DNA of 64,000 bases, taken from contig CAZVWU010000002.1 in the NCBI GenBank assembly GCA_964631205.1, positions 755 to 64,754 on the forward strand. Reading direction: 5' to 3'. Under the pieces are notes generated by a model that did not search any database, was not told the DNA's origin, and worked only from the letters and a program-made list of their open reading frames with translations. Every line of letters begins with the position of its first letter. The first letter of the stretch is position 1. The DNA is from an uncultured archaeon (GTDB taxonomy: Archaea; Aenigmatarchaeota; Aenigmatarchaeia; QMZP01; JACQNV01). Shown one piece after another: positions 9,459 to 24,214 of this stretch. The position numbers and the translations under genes were made by a program.

Positions 9459-10373
9459 TTATTCGACTTTTCTTTTCACAGACAGGGAAGGGCCTGCCCT
9501 CTCTATATTATAGAAATATGGTTCTGATTCAGCTGTTATTGAAACGAGCTTTTCAGCCAGCTCGCTGCTCGCCCCCGCCTCAAGCTCGCAATTGAATTCT
9601 CCTTTCTGGCCTTTGAAGAGATCAATTTCATTATAATTTATACATTCTCCTGTTTTGATTTCTATATCGGTTGATGGCGTTGACAGCTTAAGCTTTATTT
9701 TTTTGAGCCCATTTTCACAGGAAGTATCGGTGCATACAAAACCGGTGTCCAGATTGGAAACTGTGACAAAAAGCGGGAAGTTGACTTTCCCTTCTGACAA
9801 AAGCCTTATCTGGCTTGCCTGCCCTCTTGTGTTCATATCTATATCTATCGGGCTCCTTGATTTAAACACGGTCTCAGACTCGACTGCCTCGCCTGAATCC
9901 CTTTTTATTATAAATTTTTCCCTTGGCACGAGCTTTATCCTAGAAACTGTTATTGATTTATATTTGTATTTTATCGAAACCTTTGGCTGGAATGTCTGGT
10001 CTAATGGGAGGCTGCCTGGCGCAGTATAAGAAAATATGCATTGTTTGGATTGCCCGGGCGTGTTGAATTCTGGGTTAGGCGGATTCAGAGAAAATTTTAC
10101 GCAACTATCTACTTTAATGCCCCAGCCATCCAATCCTGTTATTGTTGGCTCTATTTCTTCTGCTTTTTCTGTCCCTGTGTTTCTTACAATAAGGCTCAAC
10201 TTTACGGCTTCCCCTGGAAGTATTTCAACCCCTTGAATATCCGGCTCGAAAGCCTCTATTGAGAGTATTCCGCCGCCAGATGATCCGCCGCCAGATGAGC
10301 AGCCGGAAATGAAAACCACTAAAGCTAAGGATAGAAAAAGCGTATATTTTTTATTGATTTTTGATGAATCCAT
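9459..10373 (-). CDS. secreted lipoprotein, CARDB-like beta-sandwich paralog 1
   Basis: Signal peptide ending VFISGCSSGGGSSGGG (lipobox-like Cys plus Gly/Ser linker), then a VRNTGTEKAEE motif resembling CARDB. Confidence 0.5.
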   Translation of the reverse strand: MDSSKINKKYTLFLSLALVVFISGCSSGGGSSGGGILSIEAFEPDIQGVEILPGEAVKLSLIVRNTGTEKAEEIEPTITGLDGWGIKVDSCVKFSLNPPNPEFNTPGQSKQCIFSYTAPGSLPLDQTFQPKVSIKYKYKSITVSRIKLVPREKFIIKRDSGEAVESETVFKSRSPIDIDMNTRGQASQIRLLSEGKVNFPLFVTVSNLDTGFVCTDTSCENGLKKIKLKLSTPSTDIEIKTGECINYNEIDLFKGQKGEFNCELEAGASSELAEKLVSITAESEPYFYNIERAGPSLSVKRKVE

Positions 10374-10387
10374 ACATAAAGCAATTA

Positions 10388-11344
10388 TTAGAATCCTGTT
10401 GCTGATTTGAGCACTGCTAGTGGCTGCGCAAGGGGCTGCAAAATCTCATAAGTATATTGCAATTCAACTTCTATTGTGGCTTTTTCTGCAGGAGCGCCCC
10501 TTTGTGGTGGGCTTGTAACCCTTAATATACAGGTTGTTTCATAGGACCTCCCAGAATTCAAGTTTATCACTCCGTTCTGGCAGGCAGGGTCTGCGCCTGT
10601 ATAGTCTGGGCTTAACCTGGAAGGCCAGCGGATATTAACCCTAACAGGATATGTGAAATCTTGGCTGGATACTAAACCTTGTGTCACATGGGCTAAGGCT
10701 GGGTTCCCATTTTTATCGATTATTGTCAATTTAACAGGGACTTGAAGGTCGAAGGTGGACCCCTGGGTTGTTGTCCTCACTTCCGGAACCTCTATCCTTA
10801 TATCAAGCGGGCCTGTATCAGCTGTTCCAAATTGTGTTACTAGCCCTTGGCCAGCATCCCTTCTTTGTATGAATGTGTCTGCATCAACAAGCGTGATTGT
10901 CCCGCTGCCTTTCAGCACATTATCATATTTTATGCTTAATTTCGGCTGTATGCTTTGCTGCACAGCATATTGGGGCGTTCTTGAACTGAAGGTAATTGTT
11001 CTTATTGGGCCTGCAAGATTCTGCTCCTGGCTAAACCCTGTAAGATCGCCTAAATTTTGTTCAAATATGCCTGACCATTTTTCTTTGTCTAAAAGTTCTA
11101 CAATATTTACCCGGGTATTCTTTGCCTTTATTGTGCCTTGGTTCTGCACCCTTGCAGTAAACTGGACAGGTTCATTCTGCCTTAATTGTGTGCCTTCCTG
11201 ATTAGACTTGAACTCAAGAATGACGACCCCATTCCCTAAACCTACTGGCGCCTGAGAGCCTTGAGCGCATCCAGAAACCAAAACTATAGAGGCTAATAAT
11301 AGCAGGGTTATATATTTTTTGTTGGGTTTTTTTGATTTTCCCAT
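10388..11344 (-). CDS. secreted lipoprotein, CARDB-like paralog 2
   Basis: Signal peptide ending VLVSGCAQG plus a VQNQGTIKAKN motif. Confidence 0.5.
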   Translation of the reverse strand: MGKSKKPNKKYITLLLLASIVLVSGCAQGSQAPVGLGNGVVILEFKSNQEGTQLRQNEPVQFTARVQNQGTIKAKNTRVNIVELLDKEKWSGIFEQNLGDLTGFSQEQNLAGPIRTITFSSRTPQYAVQQSIQPKLSIKYDNVLKGSGTITLVDADTFIQRRDAGQGLVTQFGTADTGPLDIRIEVPEVRTTTQGSTFDLQVPVKLTIIDKNGNPALAHVTQGLVSSQDFTYPVRVNIRWPSRLSPDYTGADPACQNGVINLNSGRSYETTCILRVTSPPQRGAPAEKATIEVELQYTYEILQPLAQPLAVLKSATGF

Positions 11345-11411
11345 ATAATCCTATATGTGGTATAGTAATATTACTTGCACAAGCTTATAAATTATATAAG
11401 ATCTGTCTGGC

Positions 11412-12311
11412 CTATTTTACCGCAGCTGGAGGAGCCTGGTAGTTTAGGGGTTCTATTGTCACTGTGCTTTCTTTACGGAATTCGTATTTGTAGTGTTTGA
11501 GTGTAACCTCCACTCTTACTGTTTTCTCTTTCTGGATATTCTTTGGTGTGACTAATGTGCATATTATAGGTGGGGATTTTTTCTGTATTAGTTTTATTGG
11601 TTTATCGTCATCGAAGGTGCAGCTGGTTTTACTTTCTGCATTATCTATCTTTATAGCGATATTAGTTGGTTTGATCTCCTTGCTCACAGACAAGAACCCA
11701 GACCCTTTATTTTCTATATAAAGGGAAGCTGGCTGTTGAGTTAAATCGTCTGGGATTGGCTGCCTCACGCTTGGGTCAGGAAGGATATAAGCAACTAGAG
11801 GACCTTCGCTTTTTTGCGGAACTGAGCTCTTTTGGACAAACCTGCCTTGCTCCTGCTGCCGCTGCGCTTCATCTTTGTTAATAAAATAGACTTCTGTCTG
11901 GCTTGATGTTGTGTATTCATATTCGACAGATGTTTTTAGTTTGCATGAGGGTATCGGGACAAGGACTTTTTTAGGGTCAGCTGTTAGAGTCCATTTTATT
12001 TCTTTAACTTCCCTTGGCAAAAGCTCGACGTCTTGTTCCTCACTCCCTATCGGATTAAAAACTCCGCATGTATCAAACAAAAATACATTAACCTTAATCT
12101 TATCTTTTTCGCCAAGATTCTGGACATAGGTTGTGAGCGTTATTGACTGGCCGGCTTTAACTGATTGCGGGAACACACTCTGGTCTTTTATCACAACAAT
12201 GTCATTTTCATATTTGCTTTGCAGCTGGCCTCCGCCAAAATCAAGCCCGGGGATTGTGCAGCCTGATACAAAAACAACTGCTGTTATCAGGATGATAAAA
12301 AGCTGGTTCAT
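11412..12311 (-). CDS. secreted lipoprotein, CARDB-like paralog 3
   Basis: Signal peptide ending VFVSGCTIP plus a VQNLGEKDK motif. Confidence 0.5.
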   Translation of the reverse strand: MNQLFIILITAVVFVSGCTIPGLDFGGGQLQSKYENDIVVIKDQSVFPQSVKAGQSITLTTYVQNLGEKDKIKVNVFLFDTCGVFNPIGSEEQDVELLPREVKEIKWTLTADPKKVLVPIPSCKLKTSVEYEYTTSSQTEVYFINKDEAQRQQEQGRFVQKSSVPQKSEGPLVAYILPDPSVRQPIPDDLTQQPASLYIENKGSGFLSVSKEIKPTNIAIKIDNAESKTSCTFDDDKPIKLIQKKSPPIICTLVTPKNIQKEKTVRVEVTLKHYKYEFRKESTVTIEPLNYQAPPAAVK

Positions 12312-16270: not shown

Positions 16271-17255
16271 GCCAATCAACTGTTATTCCCAGCCCTGTAT
16301 CTAAATCAACTTTTGGCTTCCATCCAAGAGCCGTTATTTTTGAAATGTCAGGCACTCTTTTCTGGACATCATATTGTAATGCTGAAAGATTTTTAAATTT
16401 TATCTCCTTTTCTGTTCGGCAGATTTTCCAAATCTTTTCTGCCAATTCCTTGACAGAAGTTTCAATTCCAGTCCCTATATTGAAATCGTCATTTTCCGCT
16501 TTTTCAGCAATAAAAATTATTGCGTCCGCGAGGTCGTCCACATATGTATAGCTTCGTGTTTGGTCTCCTGATCCCAGAATTTCAAGCGGGTATTGACCTG
16601 AGAGTATTTTCTTGACAAGGTCTGGTATGATATGCGAATATCCAATATAATCCCCTGGAACCTCTCCTGGTCCGTATGCATTGAAAGGCCTTGCAATAAC
16701 ATAAGGGACACCAAACTCCTCAAAATAGGTTTTTGCAATATATTCTGAAACCAGTTTGGAAAATCCGTATCCTGTAAGAGGAGGCGGCGAAGTTTCAATT
16801 GCTTTTTCCGGTGTTGGAAAAACAGAAGCGCGCTCAAAAACCATCGAGGACGACAGGCATACGATCTTTGTTTTTTCTTTCTTTGATGCGTCCCATAAAT
16901 TCAAATTTAGGATGGAATTGTCCCTTACGCTTGTCGCAGGGTATTTGTGAAAATAGCCTATTCCGCCTATAATTGCCGCGAAATGGAAGCAGACATCAAT
17001 TCCCTCCATTGATTTTTCTGCATTTTCTGTGTTGAGTAGATTAAGTTGCTTGAATTCTATTTTATCAAGGATATTTTCCAGATTTATCGATTCGCCTTTA
17101 GATAAATTGTCAACAACCCTGACATTCGCGCCTGCTTGAACCAATTTTATTGCAACCCTAGATCCTATAAATCCAGCGCCACCTGTAACCAAGATTTTTT
17201 TGTTTTGCCAGAAATTCATACAATTATTTCCCGCTCCCAAACCTGATGTAATCAA
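16212..17255 (-). CDS. NAD-dependent epimerase/dehydratase (extended SDR)
   Basis: ILVTGGAGFIGSRVAIKL Rossmann motif and a YxxxK region. Confidence 0.8.
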   Translation of the reverse strand: MITSGLGAGNNCMNFWQNKKILVTGGAGFIGSRVAIKLVQAGANVRVVDNLSKGESINLENILDKIEFKQLNLLNTENAEKSMEGIDVCFHFAAIIGGIGYFHKYPATSVRDNSILNLNLWDASKKEKTKIVCLSSSMVFERASVFPTPEKAIETSPPPLTGYGFSKLVSEYIAKTYFEEFGVPYVIARPFNAYGPGEVPGDYIGYSHIIPDLVKKILSGQYPLEILGSGDQTRSYTYVDDLADAIIFIAEKAENDDFNIGTGIETSVKELAEKIWKICRTEKEIKFKNLSALQYDVQKRVPDISKITALGWKPKVDLDTGLGITVDWLKKRLSIYPAKEPKPQEIL

Positions 17256-18528
17256 AACCTGATGCCTTCGCCTCTTCCCTGTCCACTATTCCCCAACAGT
17301 CGACCAATATGCAATCTTTTTTGTGGCTGCCGATCGTTGCTATTTTTTTATGCACATCCCTGAAATCTGAATGGTTAGTTGCGATTATTATTGCGTCGGC
17401 ATCCTTTACAGCTTCTTCAAGCGATTCTGTATTTTGGATTAAAGGGTCGTGCACCGAAACTTCTGCATTGCTTCCTTTAAGTATCTCAACTATCCTTACA
17501 GAAGGCGAGTATTTTGTGTTGTCGCTGTTTGCCTTGAATCCAAGGCCTAAAACAGCTATCCTTGAGTTGTGGAGCTTTTTGTTTTGTTTTTCTAGCCTTC
17601 CTTTCAGCCTGTTAATCATGTGTTGGGGGATAGATTCGCTAAGCCTCCATGCAACTTGAATGAAATCAGGGAAAGAAAGGTGTGCAGTAAGGTAATACCC
17701 GTCTTTGCTCAGGCAGGGGCCGCCTGTGAGTCCTGGAATTGGAAGGCCTCCCCTTTTGTAGCCTTCATTCACGAGCTTTATTACCTCATGCCCGTCCTCC
17801 CCATAAGTTTCTGCAAGCAGGCCAAATTCATTTCCGAGTGAGAAGTTGATATACCTGTAGACATTTGCAAAAAGCTTTGCAAGCTCTGCAGCTTTTGGAG
17901 TCGCCCTGAGAATTTTTTTGTCCTTGTTTATTTTTCGGAAAATTTCCTCAGCAATGTCGCCTGAAATTTTATCCATAGAGCCGATAATTTCTGGAAGCTC
18001 CATGATTTCTTTTATCGACTGGCCTTCCACAATCCTTTCAGGGCAGACAGCCAAGCCAAAATCCTCTCCTGCTTTCAGGCCCGTCCTCTTTTCTATGAAA
18101 GGTTTTATCACTTCCTCAAGAGTGCCAGGGGAAGCTGTCGACCTCATTATTATCATCTTGCCATTCAATGGATTTTTCACAAGGCCTTCAAGAGCAGATG
18201 TGAGCTGCGTGTAATCAGGCCTCATGTGCTCGCCTATTGGAGTCCCCACTGTAAGTATCAGCGCGTCGGATTTTGAAATTGCATCCTTTGCATCAGTTGT
18301 CGCTGTAAAATTATTTGTCTTAATGTAATCGTCTATCAGTTCCTCTTTAAACGGCGGGATTTTCTTATTTATGCTTTCAACGTATTCCTTGTTTACGTCT
18401 ATCCCAATTACTTTTATTCCAGAATTCGCAAAAACAAGCCCTAAAGGGAGGCCTACCCGCCCTATGCCTACAATCCCTATCGAAAATCCATTTGTTTTGA
18501 CTTTTTCTAGAAGCTGTTCAAGAAGCAT
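17224..18528 (-). CDS. nucleotide-sugar 6-dehydrogenase (UDP-glucose/UDP-ManNAc dehydrogenase family)
   Basis: IGIVGIGRVGLPLGLVFA NAD-binding N-terminus with a catalytic Cys region GGPCLSKD. Confidence 0.8.
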   Translation of the reverse strand: MLLEQLLEKVKTNGFSIGIVGIGRVGLPLGLVFANSGIKVIGIDVNKEYVESINKKIPPFKEELIDDYIKTNNFTATTDAKDAISKSDALILTVGTPIGEHMRPDYTQLTSALEGLVKNPLNGKMIIMRSTASPGTLEEVIKPFIEKRTGLKAGEDFGLAVCPERIVEGQSIKEIMELPEIIGSMDKISGDIAEEIFRKINKDKKILRATPKAAELAKLFANVYRYINFSLGNEFGLLAETYGEDGHEVIKLVNEGYKRGGLPIPGLTGGPCLSKDGYYLTAHLSFPDFIQVAWRLSESIPQHMINRLKGRLEKQNKKLHNSRIAVLGLGFKANSDNTKYSPSVRIVEILKGSNAEVSVHDPLIQNTESLEEAVKDADAIIIATNHSDFRDVHKKIATIGSHKKDCILVDCWGIVDREEAKASGFDYIRFGSGK

Positions 18529-18611
18529 AGCAGAGTTTTTTATTGGAAGTATAAAAAGCTAATCCTGTATTTGCCACTAACGTCAATCTAACAAAACGCG
18601 CCTGTTTAATC

Positions 18612-18971
18612 CTAATGTTTTCCAGGCAGGCTGGTGTATTTATCTAATCCACATCTTAGATCCGGGATCTTTTTTGCCAGTGCATCAAAATGTTTTTTGT
18701 ATTCTGGATTTAGCGGACTAATACGATCTGCGTCTTGAGGTTGCCACTTTCCCCGATTCAGATCATCACACACATAATTCTTACGCCTTGCCATGCCATC
18801 TGTACTATCCCCCCACATAAAACTAATGCAGGCAATGTCGCCACCTTGATAAACGACTCCCAAATACATTAAAGGGACTGTTGATTTTGTATCTATCAAG
18901 GCCTTGGTATAGACAGTTGAAAGACCGTCGTCATCCGTTTGCCAGTCTGTCTCAATTTTTATCTTTCTCAT
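18612..18971 (-). CDS. hypothetical protein (operon member 3)
   Basis: 119 aa with no recognised motif. A 4-bp overlap with the upstream gene implies co-translation. Confidence 0.4.
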   Translation of the reverse strand: MRKIKIETDWQTDDDGLSTVYTKALIDTKSTVPLMYLGVVYQGGDIACISFMWGDSTDGMARRKNYVCDDLNRGKWQPQDADRISPLNPEYKKHFDALAKKIPDLRCGLDKYTSLPGKH

Positions 18972-19837
18972 ATTTGATCCATTCTAATAGAATCCCAATC
19001 ATCAATTTCAACATGCACAGCAGTCCTGTCATCAAGCCTGTCGCCTTTTAATCCAGGATAGTTTTTGCACCTTTGTGGGTCTTCATTATAAACCTTTTTT
19101 AGTTTGGATTCTAACCCCTCTATCGTAAAGCCGTCTTGGTTGTCAGGCTCTTCAAAACCGTCGCTCCAGAGAAGCAGGTTTTTTGGTGTTGGAATTTCAA
19201 TAAATGTGATGCCTTCTTGTGGCAGGGTTTCTGTCCCGTCTATTGCAGGATAGCTGAACTTGTGGCCAAGTACGTTCTGCGTTTCATATTGGGAAATAAT
19301 AAAGGCGTTAAGCATCTTCTTGAACCAGTCTTCAGATCCATTTTCAATGCACCACTTTCTGAGCTCAGTGTGATGGGTGTCTATCGCTTTTGTAATTCCT
19401 GTAAGTATCCTGCTATCAGCTGCTAACCTGACATCGCCAACTCCTGTAACAACAGTCTTCTCTGGCGCCACTATTGCGTGTGCTATGTAGCCTGTAAATG
19501 TAAGCGCCCTGTTTTCCCTGTAGCCCTTTATGCCGAGCTGTTCATAGGCTCCTCTTATCCTCTCATTTGCGAGTTGAATAAGCTTGTATCCGGTTTCGTC
19601 TGTCCTTTCTATTACATCCTTGACTAGAGTGGAACCAATAACACCGCCATTATATTTTGTGTCTGCAGGCTCGCCTCTCAAAACTGCTGTTTCTTCATGT
19701 GTATAAGGCCCGCCAACAAGGTTGGATGCCCAATCGCCGACTGCAACCTTAAGCCTGTGGCCATTAAAATCAATAAAATAAAAATCTTCAGAAATCTTTT
19801 TCCCTGTTCCAGGCTGATAATAAATTTTTGCTTTCAT
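18968..19837 (-). CDS. hypothetical protein with weak PP2C-like phosphatase signatures (operon member 2)
   Basis: VTGVGDVRLAADSRIL resembles PP2C (N)VGDSRA(V)L, and LLWSDGF resembles PP2C SDGLWD. The match is weak. 4-bp overlaps on both sides. Confidence 0.4.
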   Translation of the reverse strand: MKAKIYYQPGTGKKISEDFYFIDFNGHRLKVAVGDWASNLVGGPYTHEETAVLRGEPADTKYNGGVIGSTLVKDVIERTDETGYKLIQLANERIRGAYEQLGIKGYRENRALTFTGYIAHAIVAPEKTVVTGVGDVRLAADSRILTGITKAIDTHHTELRKWCIENGSEDWFKKMLNAFIISQYETQNVLGHKFSYPAIDGTETLPQEGITFIEIPTPKNLLLWSDGFEEPDNQDGFTIEGLESKLKKVYNEDPQRCKNYPGLKGDRLDDRTAVHVEIDDWDSIRMDQI

Positions 19838-20820
19838 AAATCAGATATTGAAGGCTGGGGGAGCTCTATTTTACTTCCTTCTGCCTGCGAAGCTTTCAGT
19901 TTTGAAATGTCGCAGCCGTATCTGTAAACCCAAAAATCTATCACATCAAGAGACTTTCCTTGTATATTTGCTGTCCCCGCATCCATAGCATCTTGTTCTT
20001 TTATAAACCTCATCATGTAGTCTGGATCATTAGGGAGCAGCCTTAAATTTTTTCCAAATTCAGGTTCATTTTTAGCTTTCTTTTGGGTAGCTCTCCAGTC
20101 TTCATATTTTTCTTTTGTCTGTTTTCCATCAGTGTTTAGCTGAACAACAAAGGAAAATGTAGGGTGATATGTCCCTTCCCTTTTACTTGCTCCGATAGCC
20201 CAGCCAGGAATAATCCGCGAAATATCTAGATCATGGTTCACACCTATCTCTTCTCCCAATTCGCGATATATTTGCGCTCCGAAAGAAGGATGGCCATCTG
20301 GTGATATCAACAAACCGCCTGCAGGCACACCAAGCTTTCCAAGATAGGCTCCTTCTGCTTTCGTGCTTGAGCCAAAGACTATTTTTTCTCCTGTTTCATC
20401 TGGTTTAGTTAAAACCACTGCATTGACGTATGCGGCCTGGAGAGAGGTTGGCTGGCTTCTTGAAAAAGCAAACCTGAAATACGAGCTTGCAACTCCTTTA
20501 AAAACAAGATGATTATTTTCAACTTTGATGTCTGCTGGATCCATGGAAATCGCGACTATAGGATCATCAAAAAAAGTGCCTCCTTTCAACTTTTCGATTT
20601 CTTCCTTCTCCGAAATAAACTGGGCAAAAGTTTTCCCTTTTACTTTATCACCAACCGGAATCTGATGAGTATTGGGGTCAAAACTTCCTATTCTAATTCC
20701 TGAGTAGCCGCTGAAAGGCACATGATACCGCTTTCTATCTGGCATAACTAAAATATACTTTTCCTTATGGGCGAGTTTAAGCTCATCCTTTCTGAAAATA
20801 CTATCTCTTCGTCTTTGCAA
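19834..20820 (-). CDS. hypothetical protein with Nudix-box-like motif (operon member 1)
   Basis: GAQIYRELGEEIGV matches the RE(U)xEExGU core of the Nudix box but lacks the upstream Glu. The annotated start is a TTG; an internal ATG (MPDRKRY) is possible. Confidence 0.4.
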   Translation of the reverse strand: MQRRRDSIFRKDELKLAHKEKYILVMPDRKRYHVPFSGYSGIRIGSFDPNTHQIPVGDKVKGKTFAQFISEKEEIEKLKGGTFFDDPIVAISMDPADIKVENNHLVFKGVASSYFRFAFSRSQPTSLQAAYVNAVVLTKPDETGEKIVFGSSTKAEGAYLGKLGVPAGGLLISPDGHPSFGAQIYRELGEEIGVNHDLDISRIIPGWAIGASKREGTYHPTFSFVVQLNTDGKQTKEKYEDWRATQKKAKNEPEFGKNLRLLPNDPDYMMRFIKEQDAMDAGTANIQGKSLDVIDFWVYRYGCDISKLKASQAEGSKIELPQPSISDL

Positions 20821-21172
20821 AAAGCTGCAAATTCAGACTTAGTAAATTCTACTGTGTAGCTTGCAGACCCATCTGCGAGCATAGTGTCTCCTTGAATTCT
20901 CAAATAACATTTAGCAAGAACTAGCAAGAACTTTTTTTGGGCCTATATATGCCTCTATCTGATCAATACATGAAGCAACATCGCCGGTCCATGGTGTCCA
21001 TTTGTTACCTCTGCCTATAGATAGTGTTTTGTAGCCCCGTTCAATCATATTTAAATATTGTTTTTCCATAAGAACCTCCAAATTATGGCATAATATAGCA
21101 GATAGATTTATAAGCCTTCACCTCAGTTGATTCTGGCATTATTTTAAAGGCGGGTTTTGAGAGTATATAGTT

Positions 21173-22733: not shown

Positions 22734-23615
22734 CTATTTGTCTACAATGCCATTTTCAACAAGCCTGTTAACCCACTCTTCCCCAAAAATGCCAGATCCT
22801 GTTAACACAATCTGCGCGATTGCGACATCAATAATCCTGTTCTCTGCAAGATATTTTGCCATCTCTTCGCCGCTCGCATCTATCCGGAAAATTTTCTGAT
22901 ATTTTCCGGGTGTTTTTGGTTTTGTCTGGACTCCATCTTTGCCGACAATTTTTTCTGATTCTGTTTTTAGCGCGGCGTGAAAAGCGAATGTATGGTCTCT
23001 GTAAGTAAACCCTTCAGCTATGCCTTTAAGATATAATTTATCTATTTCATTTTCTTCTATGCCCAATTCAAGAGCTACTTGCCTTGCAATTACTGAAAAT
23101 AAATGGCCTGTTCCTTTCTCAACTAATTTGTCTACATCCCCGTCCTCACCTGTCAAGCCCCGTCCAAATAAGCTGTCATAACCACCCCATGTTGCCGTGG
23201 CTGGCGATCTTGTACTGTGAAGGGATTTATTGTCTGCTGTTCTTACAGTTGACATCACGCCTATATTTTCCCTGTATTCGTTGGGGATATTTTCTCCTTT
23301 TCTAGCCATAAGATTCATCGCTTCAAAGGCAACATAACCCATTTGCATTAAGCCAACTTCTGCGCCTGTCTCTGTTTCTCTTGTATATCTTAAGCCAGCC
23401 AATTTGCCGTCTCTAAGATCCCGCTGTTCTTTCTTAGCCAATTCCGCAGCCTCTGATTTTGCCTTTTCCAACCTTTCTTTAAAATCAGCATTGTATTGGT
23501 TATCAGTTCCGCGTACAAGTTTCAAGTCTCCTGCTGTATAAGCATCAATTCTTTTAGTCGGCAAAAGGATTTTCCAAGTTTTTCCTTGATACATAAGCAA
23601 CAGATCCACATTCAT
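22734..23615 (-). CDS. hypothetical protein
   Basis: 293 aa, soluble, no recognised motif. Confidence 0.4.
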   Translation of the reverse strand: MNVDLLLMYQGKTWKILLPTKRIDAYTAGDLKLVRGTDNQYNADFKERLEKAKSEAAELAKKEQRDLRDGKLAGLRYTRETETGAEVGLMQMGYVAFEAMNLMARKGENIPNEYRENIGVMSTVRTADNKSLHSTRSPATATWGGYDSLFGRGLTGEDGDVDKLVEKGTGHLFSVIARQVALELGIEENEIDKLYLKGIAEGFTYRDHTFAFHAALKTESEKIVGKDGVQTKPKTPGKYQKIFRIDASGEEMAKYLAENRIIDVAIAQIVLTGSGIFGEEWVNRLVENGIVDK

Positions 23616-24214
23616 GTTTTAAAAGCTTTTTCCAACTTTGAGGAAGCCAGCTGCTCAGCTGAAAGAAATTGAATTGTCTGCAATCCGTGTTTTCTGGCCA
23701 TTTCTATCTTTTCAGGACTGTCGTCAACCAAAAGCAAACTTGCCGGATCGCCGCCAAGCTCCTTTATTACATGCTCGAAGCAGCCTTCATCCGTTTTCAG
23801 AAAATGTGTTTCATGGGATCTGAAGATTTTTTCTGAATATTTTGCCAAATTGACCATTTCTTTTTCCCTTCTTGTCTGCCATTCATTCGTATCGGTTAGA
23901 AAAGCCAACTCCCTGCCGCTGCCCCACAATTTTTCAAGGATGCCTGCAACGCCTGAATCAACTGCATACATATGCTCATCGTGCGCACGGACAATTTGTT
24001 CGTATTTCAGGGGGAATTTCAAATGCGTTTCAACAAGCCTGTTATAAAACTCGCGGCTTGTCATCATTCCCCTGCTATAGACATCATAATCCGGGTTGTC
24101 AAAAAATTTTCCCCTCCTCTGTTCAGGGACTCCATACTCCCCAAGAATTCTCATTGTTATTTCATGCGTCGCCTTTATTATCACATTCCCAACATCGAAT
24201 ATTATTACTTGCAT
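23612..24214 (-). CDS. HAD-superfamily hydrolase
   Basis: IIFDVGNVII (DxG motif I) and LLLVDDSPEKIEMARKHG (motif IV). Confidence 0.65.
   Translation of the reverse strand: MQVIIFDVGNVIIKATHEITMRILGEYGVPEQRRGKFFDNPDYDVYSRGMMTSREFYNRLVETHLKFPLKYEQIVRAHDEHMYAVDSGVAGILEKLWGSGRELAFLTDTNEWQTRREKEMVNLAKYSEKIFRSHETHFLKTDEGCFEHVIKELGGDPASLLLVDDSPEKIEMARKHGLQTIQFLSAEQLASSKLEKAFKT

Follow-up and report, generated by a model that had tools for sequence, protein, structure and literature searches.

We describe a small minus-strand operon in a 64,000-nucleotide stretch of DNA from an uncultured archaeon of the Aenigmatarchaeota lineage (contig CAZVWU010000002.1 of assembly GCA_964631205.1, positions 755 to 64,754; hereafter the window), in which a gene for a phosphatase of the PPM/PP2C fold (g2) lies directly downstream of a gene for a divergent Nudix-like protein (g1). 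The g2 product is predicted to represent a new archaeal subfamily of the PPM clan that falls outside every curated model, and the g1 product to carry an intact Nudix catalytic helix (RE-x2-EE). Our preferred, if tentative, reading is that the two would form a cassette of phosphohydrolases that act in two steps in the metabolism of glycan precursors. Both folds are already known; the novelty lies in a PPM subfamily, with an altered motif II, that had gone undetected by curated profiles, in its divergent Nudix partner, and in their setting in archaeal glycosylation clusters.

The three genes first reported at this locus are co-directional open reading frames (ORFs) on the minus strand, at 19834–20820 (with a TTG start; g1), 18968–19837 (g2) and 18612–18971 (g3). 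The 4-bp ATGA stop/start overlaps attributed to them can be read directly from the sequence at both junctions, 19834–19837 between g1 and g2 and 18968–18971 between g2 and g3 (tcat on the plus strand). Co-directional and overlapping, the genes form a translationally coupled operon, with a putative promoter ahead of it. The cassette occupies a slot between genes for a flippase and a uridine diphosphate (UDP)-sugar dehydrogenase, inside a glycan island, and the regional GC content is the same as that of the surroundings. Neither g1, g2 nor g3 could be assigned to a family in Pfam (even at E = 1), PADLOC, NCBIfam or PHROGs; a match of g2 to FosA in NCBIfam scored 16 bits against a cut-off of 250–305 and was dismissed as noise.

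The placement of g2 (289 residues; 18968–19837, minus strand) among the PPM/PP2C-fold metallophosphatases draws on an AlphaFold2 (AF2) model, Foldseek searches and alignments. The model, built on the family alignment, has a predicted local distance difference test (pLDDT) score of 85.9 and a predicted template modelling (pTM) score of 0.86, and the top 50 Foldseek matches to it in the PDB are all PPM/PP2C phosphatases (E-values down to 1.1e-9, probability 1.00, template modelling score up to 0.66), with Stp1, PstP, RsbX, tPphA, PppA, SaSTP and the plant HAB1/ABI1 among the named neighbours. The VGDxR and SDG motifs from which a weak PP2C-like character had been proposed are indeed present, and the resemblance can now be called strong, given the Foldseek probability and a transitive sequence link to the Pfam family PP2C_2. 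By itself, g2 matches none of the Pfam PP2C_2 (PF13672), PP2C or SpoIIE models, even at E = 1. The intermediates came from an exhaustive search of 1.84 billion representatives with the g2 profile, in which 327 proteins matched at E ≤ 1e-3: PP2C_2 is matched by 22 of the 72 sampled proteins of the g2 superfamily, P0042, P0059, P0060 and P0050 score 27–32 bits against its threshold of 24, and P0042 bridges the two families, with an E-value of 1.3e-25 to the g2 profile and 31.7 bits to PP2C_2 (gathering score 24). Because such relatives pass the PP2C_2 threshold while g2 itself scores nothing, g2 is placed by these comparisons within the PPM clan, yet in no curated family.

The motifs of g2 (E17-D18, G34-D35-W36, V133-G-D135, S195-YPAIDGT-202, W224-S-D226-G and D269-D270-R-T) are strongly conserved in a family of eight relatives at 44–62% identity. 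When the comparison is widened to PP2C_2-positive relatives, E17-D18 (motif I), D35 (motif II), D135 (the 'GD'), D226-G227 (motif VIII) and D269-D270-R-T (motif XI) remain invariant, and D18, D35, D226 and D269-D270 align with the NED, DG, SDG and DDRT of those proteins. The catalytic metal site therefore looks intact, as the metal-ligand Asp residues are invariant with respect to bona fide PP2C_2 members. Other features of the clade depart from conventional PPM enzymes. The canonical motif II, D-G-x-G-G, reads G-D-W-A-[SN] in the g2 clade, with Trp in place of Gly, whereas distant relatives retain DGA[ST]; an insertion of 21–28 residues follows this motif, and two long helices, together with the invariant Q183/Q187-N188/SYPAIDGT, stand where the flap region would be.

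The g1 product (303 residues; 19834–20745, minus strand) starts at ATG 20745 and not at TTG 20820, to which the initial annotation had extended the gene: three homologues begin at an equivalent MP..K..YH, and the gene callers in two assemblies also picked the ATG. Its Nudix core, Y-RELGEEIGV, occupies residues 160–169, and E162, E165, E166 and G168 are invariant in the four-member family alignment, the pattern of which is P-A-G-x-L-x3-P-D-G-x-P-S-x-G-x-Q-x-Y-x-E-x2-E-E-x-G. Measured against the Nudix box (G-x5-E-x7-RE-U-x-EE-x-G-U), the second half is perfect and the G-x5-E spacing is absent, that half being replaced by a loop 3–4 residues longer with an invariant PDG. The protein had been described as a degenerate Nudix domain; this is apt as regards the RELGEEIGV core and the missing G-x5-E half, but the invariance of E162, E165 and E166 speaks against functional degeneracy. 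On either side of the core, about 100 N-terminal and 90 C-terminal residues have no assigned domain.

Profile similarity to MutT indicates that the Nudix core of g1 is genuine, in agreement with the Nudix-like character first proposed. HHalign aligned the g1 domain profile with MutT at a probability of 85% (E = 6e-6) and a score of 34.3, compared with 11.8 ± 2.5 for shuffled profiles, none of 60 of which reached that value. MutT was also the sole PDB match of the full g1 profile and the top match of the domain-restricted profile, aligned on the box in the search, with database-wide E-values of just 0.3–1.4. The Pfam NUDIX model (PF00293) found the orthologue P0002 at E = 0.04 (14.4 bits, under the gathering score of 21.1). 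A scan of the ORF segments of 100 residues or more in the window and the fetched loci found the core motif nowhere else.

Proteins of this kind are exceedingly few. A word-indexed search of 5.8 billion proteins returned two matches to g1 (itself and one relative at 39% identity), and two further homologues were recognised only through their position upstream of g2 homologues, giving a family of four known members, in the window and in loci L003, L004 and L005. The g1 profile had no matches in metagenome contigs or viral contigs, and g1 was never found alone, whether among the 5.8 billion proteins or in the metagenome scan.

The genomic distribution of the pair was assessed in a set of about 11 distinct archaeal g2 loci. 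All carry g2, and the four that also carry g1 have it immediately upstream of g2, the two genes overlapping by 4 bp or lying 3 nt apart; the ATGA overlap of the window is found again in L004 and L005. The neighbourhood comparison suggested in the initial annotation thus came out in favour of a link, with g1 adjacent to g2 in every locus where it occurs and g2 always in an envelope or glycan context. Of the three-gene unit envisaged there, the g1–g2 pair recurs, whereas the trio is not conserved and g2 often stands alone. On the g2 tree, the loci with g1 occupy two positions, and g1 is for this reason best regarded as a patchy accessory partner. The conserved core is g2, which is always found among envelope/glycan biosynthesis genes.

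The nature of these genes varies from locus to locus. In the window and in L003, from a related archaeon, g2 neighbours a UDP-sugar dehydrogenase, an epimerase and a GT2 glycosyltransferase; in L004, a UDP-N-acetylglucosamine (UDP-GlcNAc) 2-epimerase, an epimerase and GT1; in L006, L016 and L019, a sugar-1-phosphate nucleotidyltransferase, a 2-epimerase, a B12-radical SAM protein, GT2 and PMT_2, in an AglB/STT3 island; and in L013, L014 and L028, a methyltransferase, a CDP-alcohol phosphatidyltransferase (CDP, cytidine diphosphate) and an epimerase. In L005, L007/L015, L010, L011 and L031, g2 is followed by a convergent gene for an LPG_synthase_TM (MprF-flippase-like) membrane protein and then usually by TFIIB, with a PIN toxin-antitoxin pair inserted between g2 and LPG_synthase_TM in L005. 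Carriers of g2 include metagenome-assembled genomes (MAGs) labelled 'archaeon GW2011_AR5' and Aenigmatarchaeota, each among the LPG_synthase_TM loci. With biosynthetic neighbours in the window and in the related loci, the glycan-island setting proposed for the operon is upheld. No protein kinase, Hanks-type or other, and no anti-sigma-type partner was found in any of the approximately 11 loci, and 2.9 million viral contigs contained no relatives.

The closest comparison is with L003, where g1 and g2 occupy the same slot as in the window, from flippase to UDP-sugar dehydrogenase. The dehydrogenase and the epimerase of the two loci are 85% and 83% identical and g2 is 62% identical, as against 39% for g1 (19834–20745 in the window, 374–1267 in L003). 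Given 39% identity for g1 and 85% for the adjacent dehydrogenase, g1 would appear either to evolve unusually fast or to have been replaced. Elsewhere, the g2 homologue of L011 (8040–8531; Aenigmatarchaeota MAG JBAZQV010000001.1) retains only the C-terminal 163 residues, the N-terminal half being absent from the upstream sequence; it still lies beside LPG_synthase_TM and is probably a pseudogene remnant. A lipoprotein-like protein of 107–120 residues (MRK..GAC; 51% identity) is encoded near g2 in L007 (1054–1416) and L010 (7120–7443), on the downstream side of g2 in one locus and on the upstream side in the other, and shows no relationship to g3.

Distant relatives of g2 include natural fusions. 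In P0102 (611 residues), a g2-like domain (residues 68–301) is followed by a Pfam NUDIX domain at the C-terminus (23 bits against the gathering score of 21.1), and in P0124 and four similar proteins (P0088, P0093, P0108 and P0111), all of 515–592 residues, an N-terminal HD-like phosphohydrolase is joined to a PPM-like domain. The PPM-like domain thus recurs in combination with enzymes that split the (pyro)phosphate bonds of nucleotides. A functional link between g1 and g2 is likewise supported, because g1 occurs solely immediately upstream of g2 in its four loci and because P0102 provides a natural PPM-like/NUDIX fusion. P0102 itself adjoins a His_Phos_1 phosphatase and an enolase on a bacterial-looking contig.

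In the cassette that we tentatively propose, g1 would cleave the pyrophosphate bond of a nucleotide-activated compound, of the nucleoside diphosphate (NDP)-sugar or CDP-alcohol type, to give a nucleoside monophosphate and a phosphomonoester, from which g2 would strip the phosphate at a binuclear Mn2+/Mg2+ site. Recognition of a fixed small ligand may be the role of the invariant polar motif in g2 (Q183, Q187-N188 and SYPAIDGT). In loci that lack g1, the phosphomonoester would have to be supplied to g2 by another enzyme. The nucleotide-sugar processing module put forward in the initial annotation survives as the best, still presumptive, hypothesis. Extending it further, we consider it doubtful that the g2 clade is the first PPM/PP2C-fold family to act on a non-protein phosphomonoester (a sugar, lipid- or nucleotide-derived phosphate) released by a dedicated Nudix (or HD) pyrophosphatase, the two together carrying out a step that has gone unrecognised in the biosynthesis of archaeal surface glycans or lipid head groups.

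Several observations weigh against the two-step scheme. The characterised proteins that resemble g2 in structure are without exception protein Ser/Thr phosphatases, and our literature searches found no description of a small-molecule PPM enzyme. The absence of g1 from 7 of the approximately 11 g2 loci means that the scheme cannot be the whole story. Pfam NUDIX gives no match to g1 itself. Structure prediction, which had been suggested as a check, returned the PP2C fold for g2 but not a usable result for g1, since only two sequences were admissible as AF2 input: the g1 model built on this two-sequence alignment has a pLDDT of 38.5 and a fold search with it yielded noise, which leaves the fold unconfirmed. 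A comparison of g1 with the C-terminal half of P0102 was colinear but marginal, with 2 of 60 shuffles reaching the score, and homology between them over the whole length was not retained on such marginal support. The genomic contexts of the distant relatives P0102, P0088, P0030 and P0028 are bacterial and uninformative, and the convergent adjacency of g2 and LPG_synthase_TM may reflect DPANN synteny rather than function.

A rather unlikely alternative, though one with substance, is that g2 regulates one or more proteins of envelope or glycan assembly as an ordinary Ser/Thr protein phosphatase would, and that g1, an independent Nudix enzyme with a housekeeping or sensor function, does no more than share its transcript. 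The structural neighbours (Stp1, PstP, RsbX, tPphA, PppA and HAB1/ABI1) are all protein phosphatases, PP2C_2 is the nearest Pfam family, PPM enzymes are known to regulate bacterial cell-wall synthesis, and most loci carry g2 without g1. Against this, no kinase or anti-sigma-type partner accompanies g2 in any of these loci; nor does an invariant stretch of eight residues (SYPAIDGT), together with Q183, Q187 and N188, suggest varied protein substrates so much as one fixed ligand. The recurrent fusion or coupling to Nudix and HD-like enzymes better fits metabolic channelling, and g1 is never found away from g2.

It had been suggested at the outset that the genes might be a small defence system. 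A mobile module of the defence, toxin or conflict kind, which would act by depleting or altering nucleotides and would lie in a hypervariable glycan island by chance, could account for the extreme rarity and patchy distribution of the cassette, the faster divergence of g1 than of the neighbouring dehydrogenase between syntenic loci, the atypical codon usage of the orphans g0 (a frameshifted gene upstream of g1) and g3, and the PIN toxin-antitoxin genes that adjoin the pair in L005. We nonetheless hold this to be highly improbable: none of 5027 PADLOC models was matched, PHROGs and the viral contigs gave nothing, the GC content resembles that of the surroundings and the codon usage of g2 is fully native (0.333), the position of the cassette is syntenic in two related archaea, and its neighbours are consistently biosynthetic rather than defensive. 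That the operon is a decaying remnant with no current function is also very unlikely. The frameshift in g0, the truncated g2 homologue of the Aenigmatarchaeota genome and the near-zero codon adaptation of g3 would all agree with decay, but g1 and g2 are full-length, their catalytic residues are invariant across homologues, and the coupling overlaps have been kept in three independent loci.

Set beside known PPM/PP2C phosphatases (PF13672; for example Stp1 of Staphylococcus aureus, 6iht/5f1m, PstP of Mycobacterium tuberculosis, 1txo, and RsbX of Bacillus subtilis, 3w40), g2 shares their fold, the same order of catalytic motifs (ED, motif II D, GD, SDG, DD/DN) and sequence homology through intermediates above the PP2C_2 gathering score. 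It differs in its G-D-W-A motif II, the 21–28-residue insertion and the altered flap, in having no partner kinase, and in its coupling to a Nudix gene within archaeal glycan clusters; its substrate, too, may be non-protein. In the same way, g1 shares with Escherichia coli MutT (1mut) the RE-U-x-EE-x-G-U helix, the three invariant Glu residues and a preceding P-A-G-G loop, and departs from other Nudix proteins in lacking the G-x5-E half, in scoring below the Pfam NUDIX threshold, in its extra flanks of about 100 and 90 residues and in its membership of four. The GDP-mannose mannosyl hydrolase Gmm/WcaH is a Nudix enzyme of polysaccharide clusters in which the Nudix signature is also changed, and g1 likewise sits in a sugar-polymer gene cluster.

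Routes in which a Nudix enzyme is followed by a phosphatase are known from folate synthesis (NudB and a phosphatase) and from geraniol formation (Nudix1 and a phosphatase). The parallel with the present pair is one of analogy, in the shared logic of a pyrophosphohydrolase followed by a phosphomonoesterase, and is backed here by gene coupling and the PPM-like/NUDIX fusion. To our knowledge, the second enzyme in those routes is of the HAD or another type, and not of the PPM fold. PPM/PP2C enzymes are regarded almost exclusively as protein phosphatases. Literature searches yielded no description of PP2C–Nudix pairs, and a 2025 survey of 57,520 PF13672 sequences, 439 of them archaeal, makes no mention of Nudix or HD partners. 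Should metabolites or lipids prove to be the substrates of g2, the range of reactions ascribed to the PP2C fold would grow, and archaeal envelope biosynthesis would gain an enzyme type that had been missing; at the least, two families of 'hypothetical' proteins gain a fold-level annotation.

Upstream of g1, the initial annotation had placed a 350-bp promoter region with a tandem motif. The motif is there, as a perfect 10-bp tandem duplication (TAGCAAGAAC twice, 20912–20931) that is unique within the window, but the region is mostly coding. Its 5′ part encodes a fragment that begins MEKQYLN and ends KKVLASSC (20911–21069, minus strand, within an ORF at 20911–21081), closed prematurely by a frameshift, and its 3′ part a fragment in another frame (20748–20927, minus strand), the TAG stop of which lies 2 nt before the ATG of g1. 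The two are halves of a single gene, g0, in which the duplication causes a +1 frameshift. When one 10-bp copy was deleted in silico, a single open frame of 103 residues resulted, from ATG 21069 to TAG 20748–20750; because removing one copy restores the frame in this way, the repeat is a frameshifting duplication within coding sequence and not a regulatory motif. An apparent regulatory repeat thus turns out to be a duplication that is predicted to inactivate a gene. By codon usage, each half scores higher in its annotated frame than in the other five (0.119 for the 5′ half and 0.076 for the 3′ half). The split is identical in two assemblies, L001 and L002, one from ENA and one from Logan; one source run is SRR8863434 (bioproject PRJNA512237). 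The duplication could have become fixed, making g0 a pseudogene, could vary within the population, or could act as a phase-variable switch. Searches of Pfam, PHROGs and the PDB sequences with the reconstructed g0 protein found no homologue.

As the supposed promoter stretch is mostly g0 coding sequence, the operon has four genes, in the order g0 (frameshifted)–g1–g2–g3. The last of them, g3 (18612–18971, minus strand), is an orphan ORF of 119 residues joined to g2 by the second ATGA overlap. The novelty ascribed to it is borne out, as 5.8 billion proteins contained no homologue but g3 itself, and Pfam, PHROGs and the PDB sequences contained none; the syntenic locus L003 lacks it. The annotated frame is again the best of six, but its codon usage score (0.014) is lower than that of any native gene in the window (these average 0.27, with a minimum of 0.137); the values for g0 (0.08–0.12) likewise fall below that minimum. 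Judged by these features, g0 and g3 look like young or foreign lineage-specific accessories rather than parts of a conserved system. Comparison with the small ORFs found downstream of g2 in other loci revealed no relationship to g3. One of the ORFs considered, of 154 residues in L011, is a probable shadow ORF, since it matches the opposite strand of a region of L005 in which a PIN gene is called.

The real intergenic stretch ahead of the operon is only about 100 bp long (21070–21172) and contains two candidate expression signals on the minus strand. A TATA-like box, TTATAAAT (21106–21113), precedes the g0 ATG by about 40 nt and, going by archaeal promoter architecture, is likely to be the promoter of the operon; a GGAGGT ribosome-binding site (21074–21079) can be read directly 4 nt ahead of ATG 21069. 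At the other end, a T-run, TTTTGTT (18590–18596, minus strand), follows the g3 stop codon and is a possible archaeal terminator. The UDP-sugar dehydrogenase gene (17224–18528), which comes next after g3, has a TATA-like box of its own, TTTTTATA.

On the opposite side of the flippase gene, the g1–g2 arrangement is mirrored by a second pair, in which the gene for a 293-residue protein with no Pfam or PDB match (22734–23615, minus strand) overlaps a HAD-phosphatase gene (23612–24214, minus strand) by 4 bp. Whether the 293-residue protein is a g1 paralogue was tested with HHalign, which gave a colinear alignment over 160 columns that places 'RQVALELGIEE' on the Nudix helix. The match is not significant (E = 0.07, with 5 of 60 shuffles reaching the score), and the pair is retained as a lead rather than as evidence. 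The host archaeon has F420 and mevalonate-pathway genes. Further along the window, at 9459–12311 on the minus strand, three tandem genes encode proteins of about 300 residues with no Pfam match, two of which are paralogous (31% identity, E = 1e-17); as each has a signal peptide and an SGC lipobox-like motif, they are probably surface lipoproteins.

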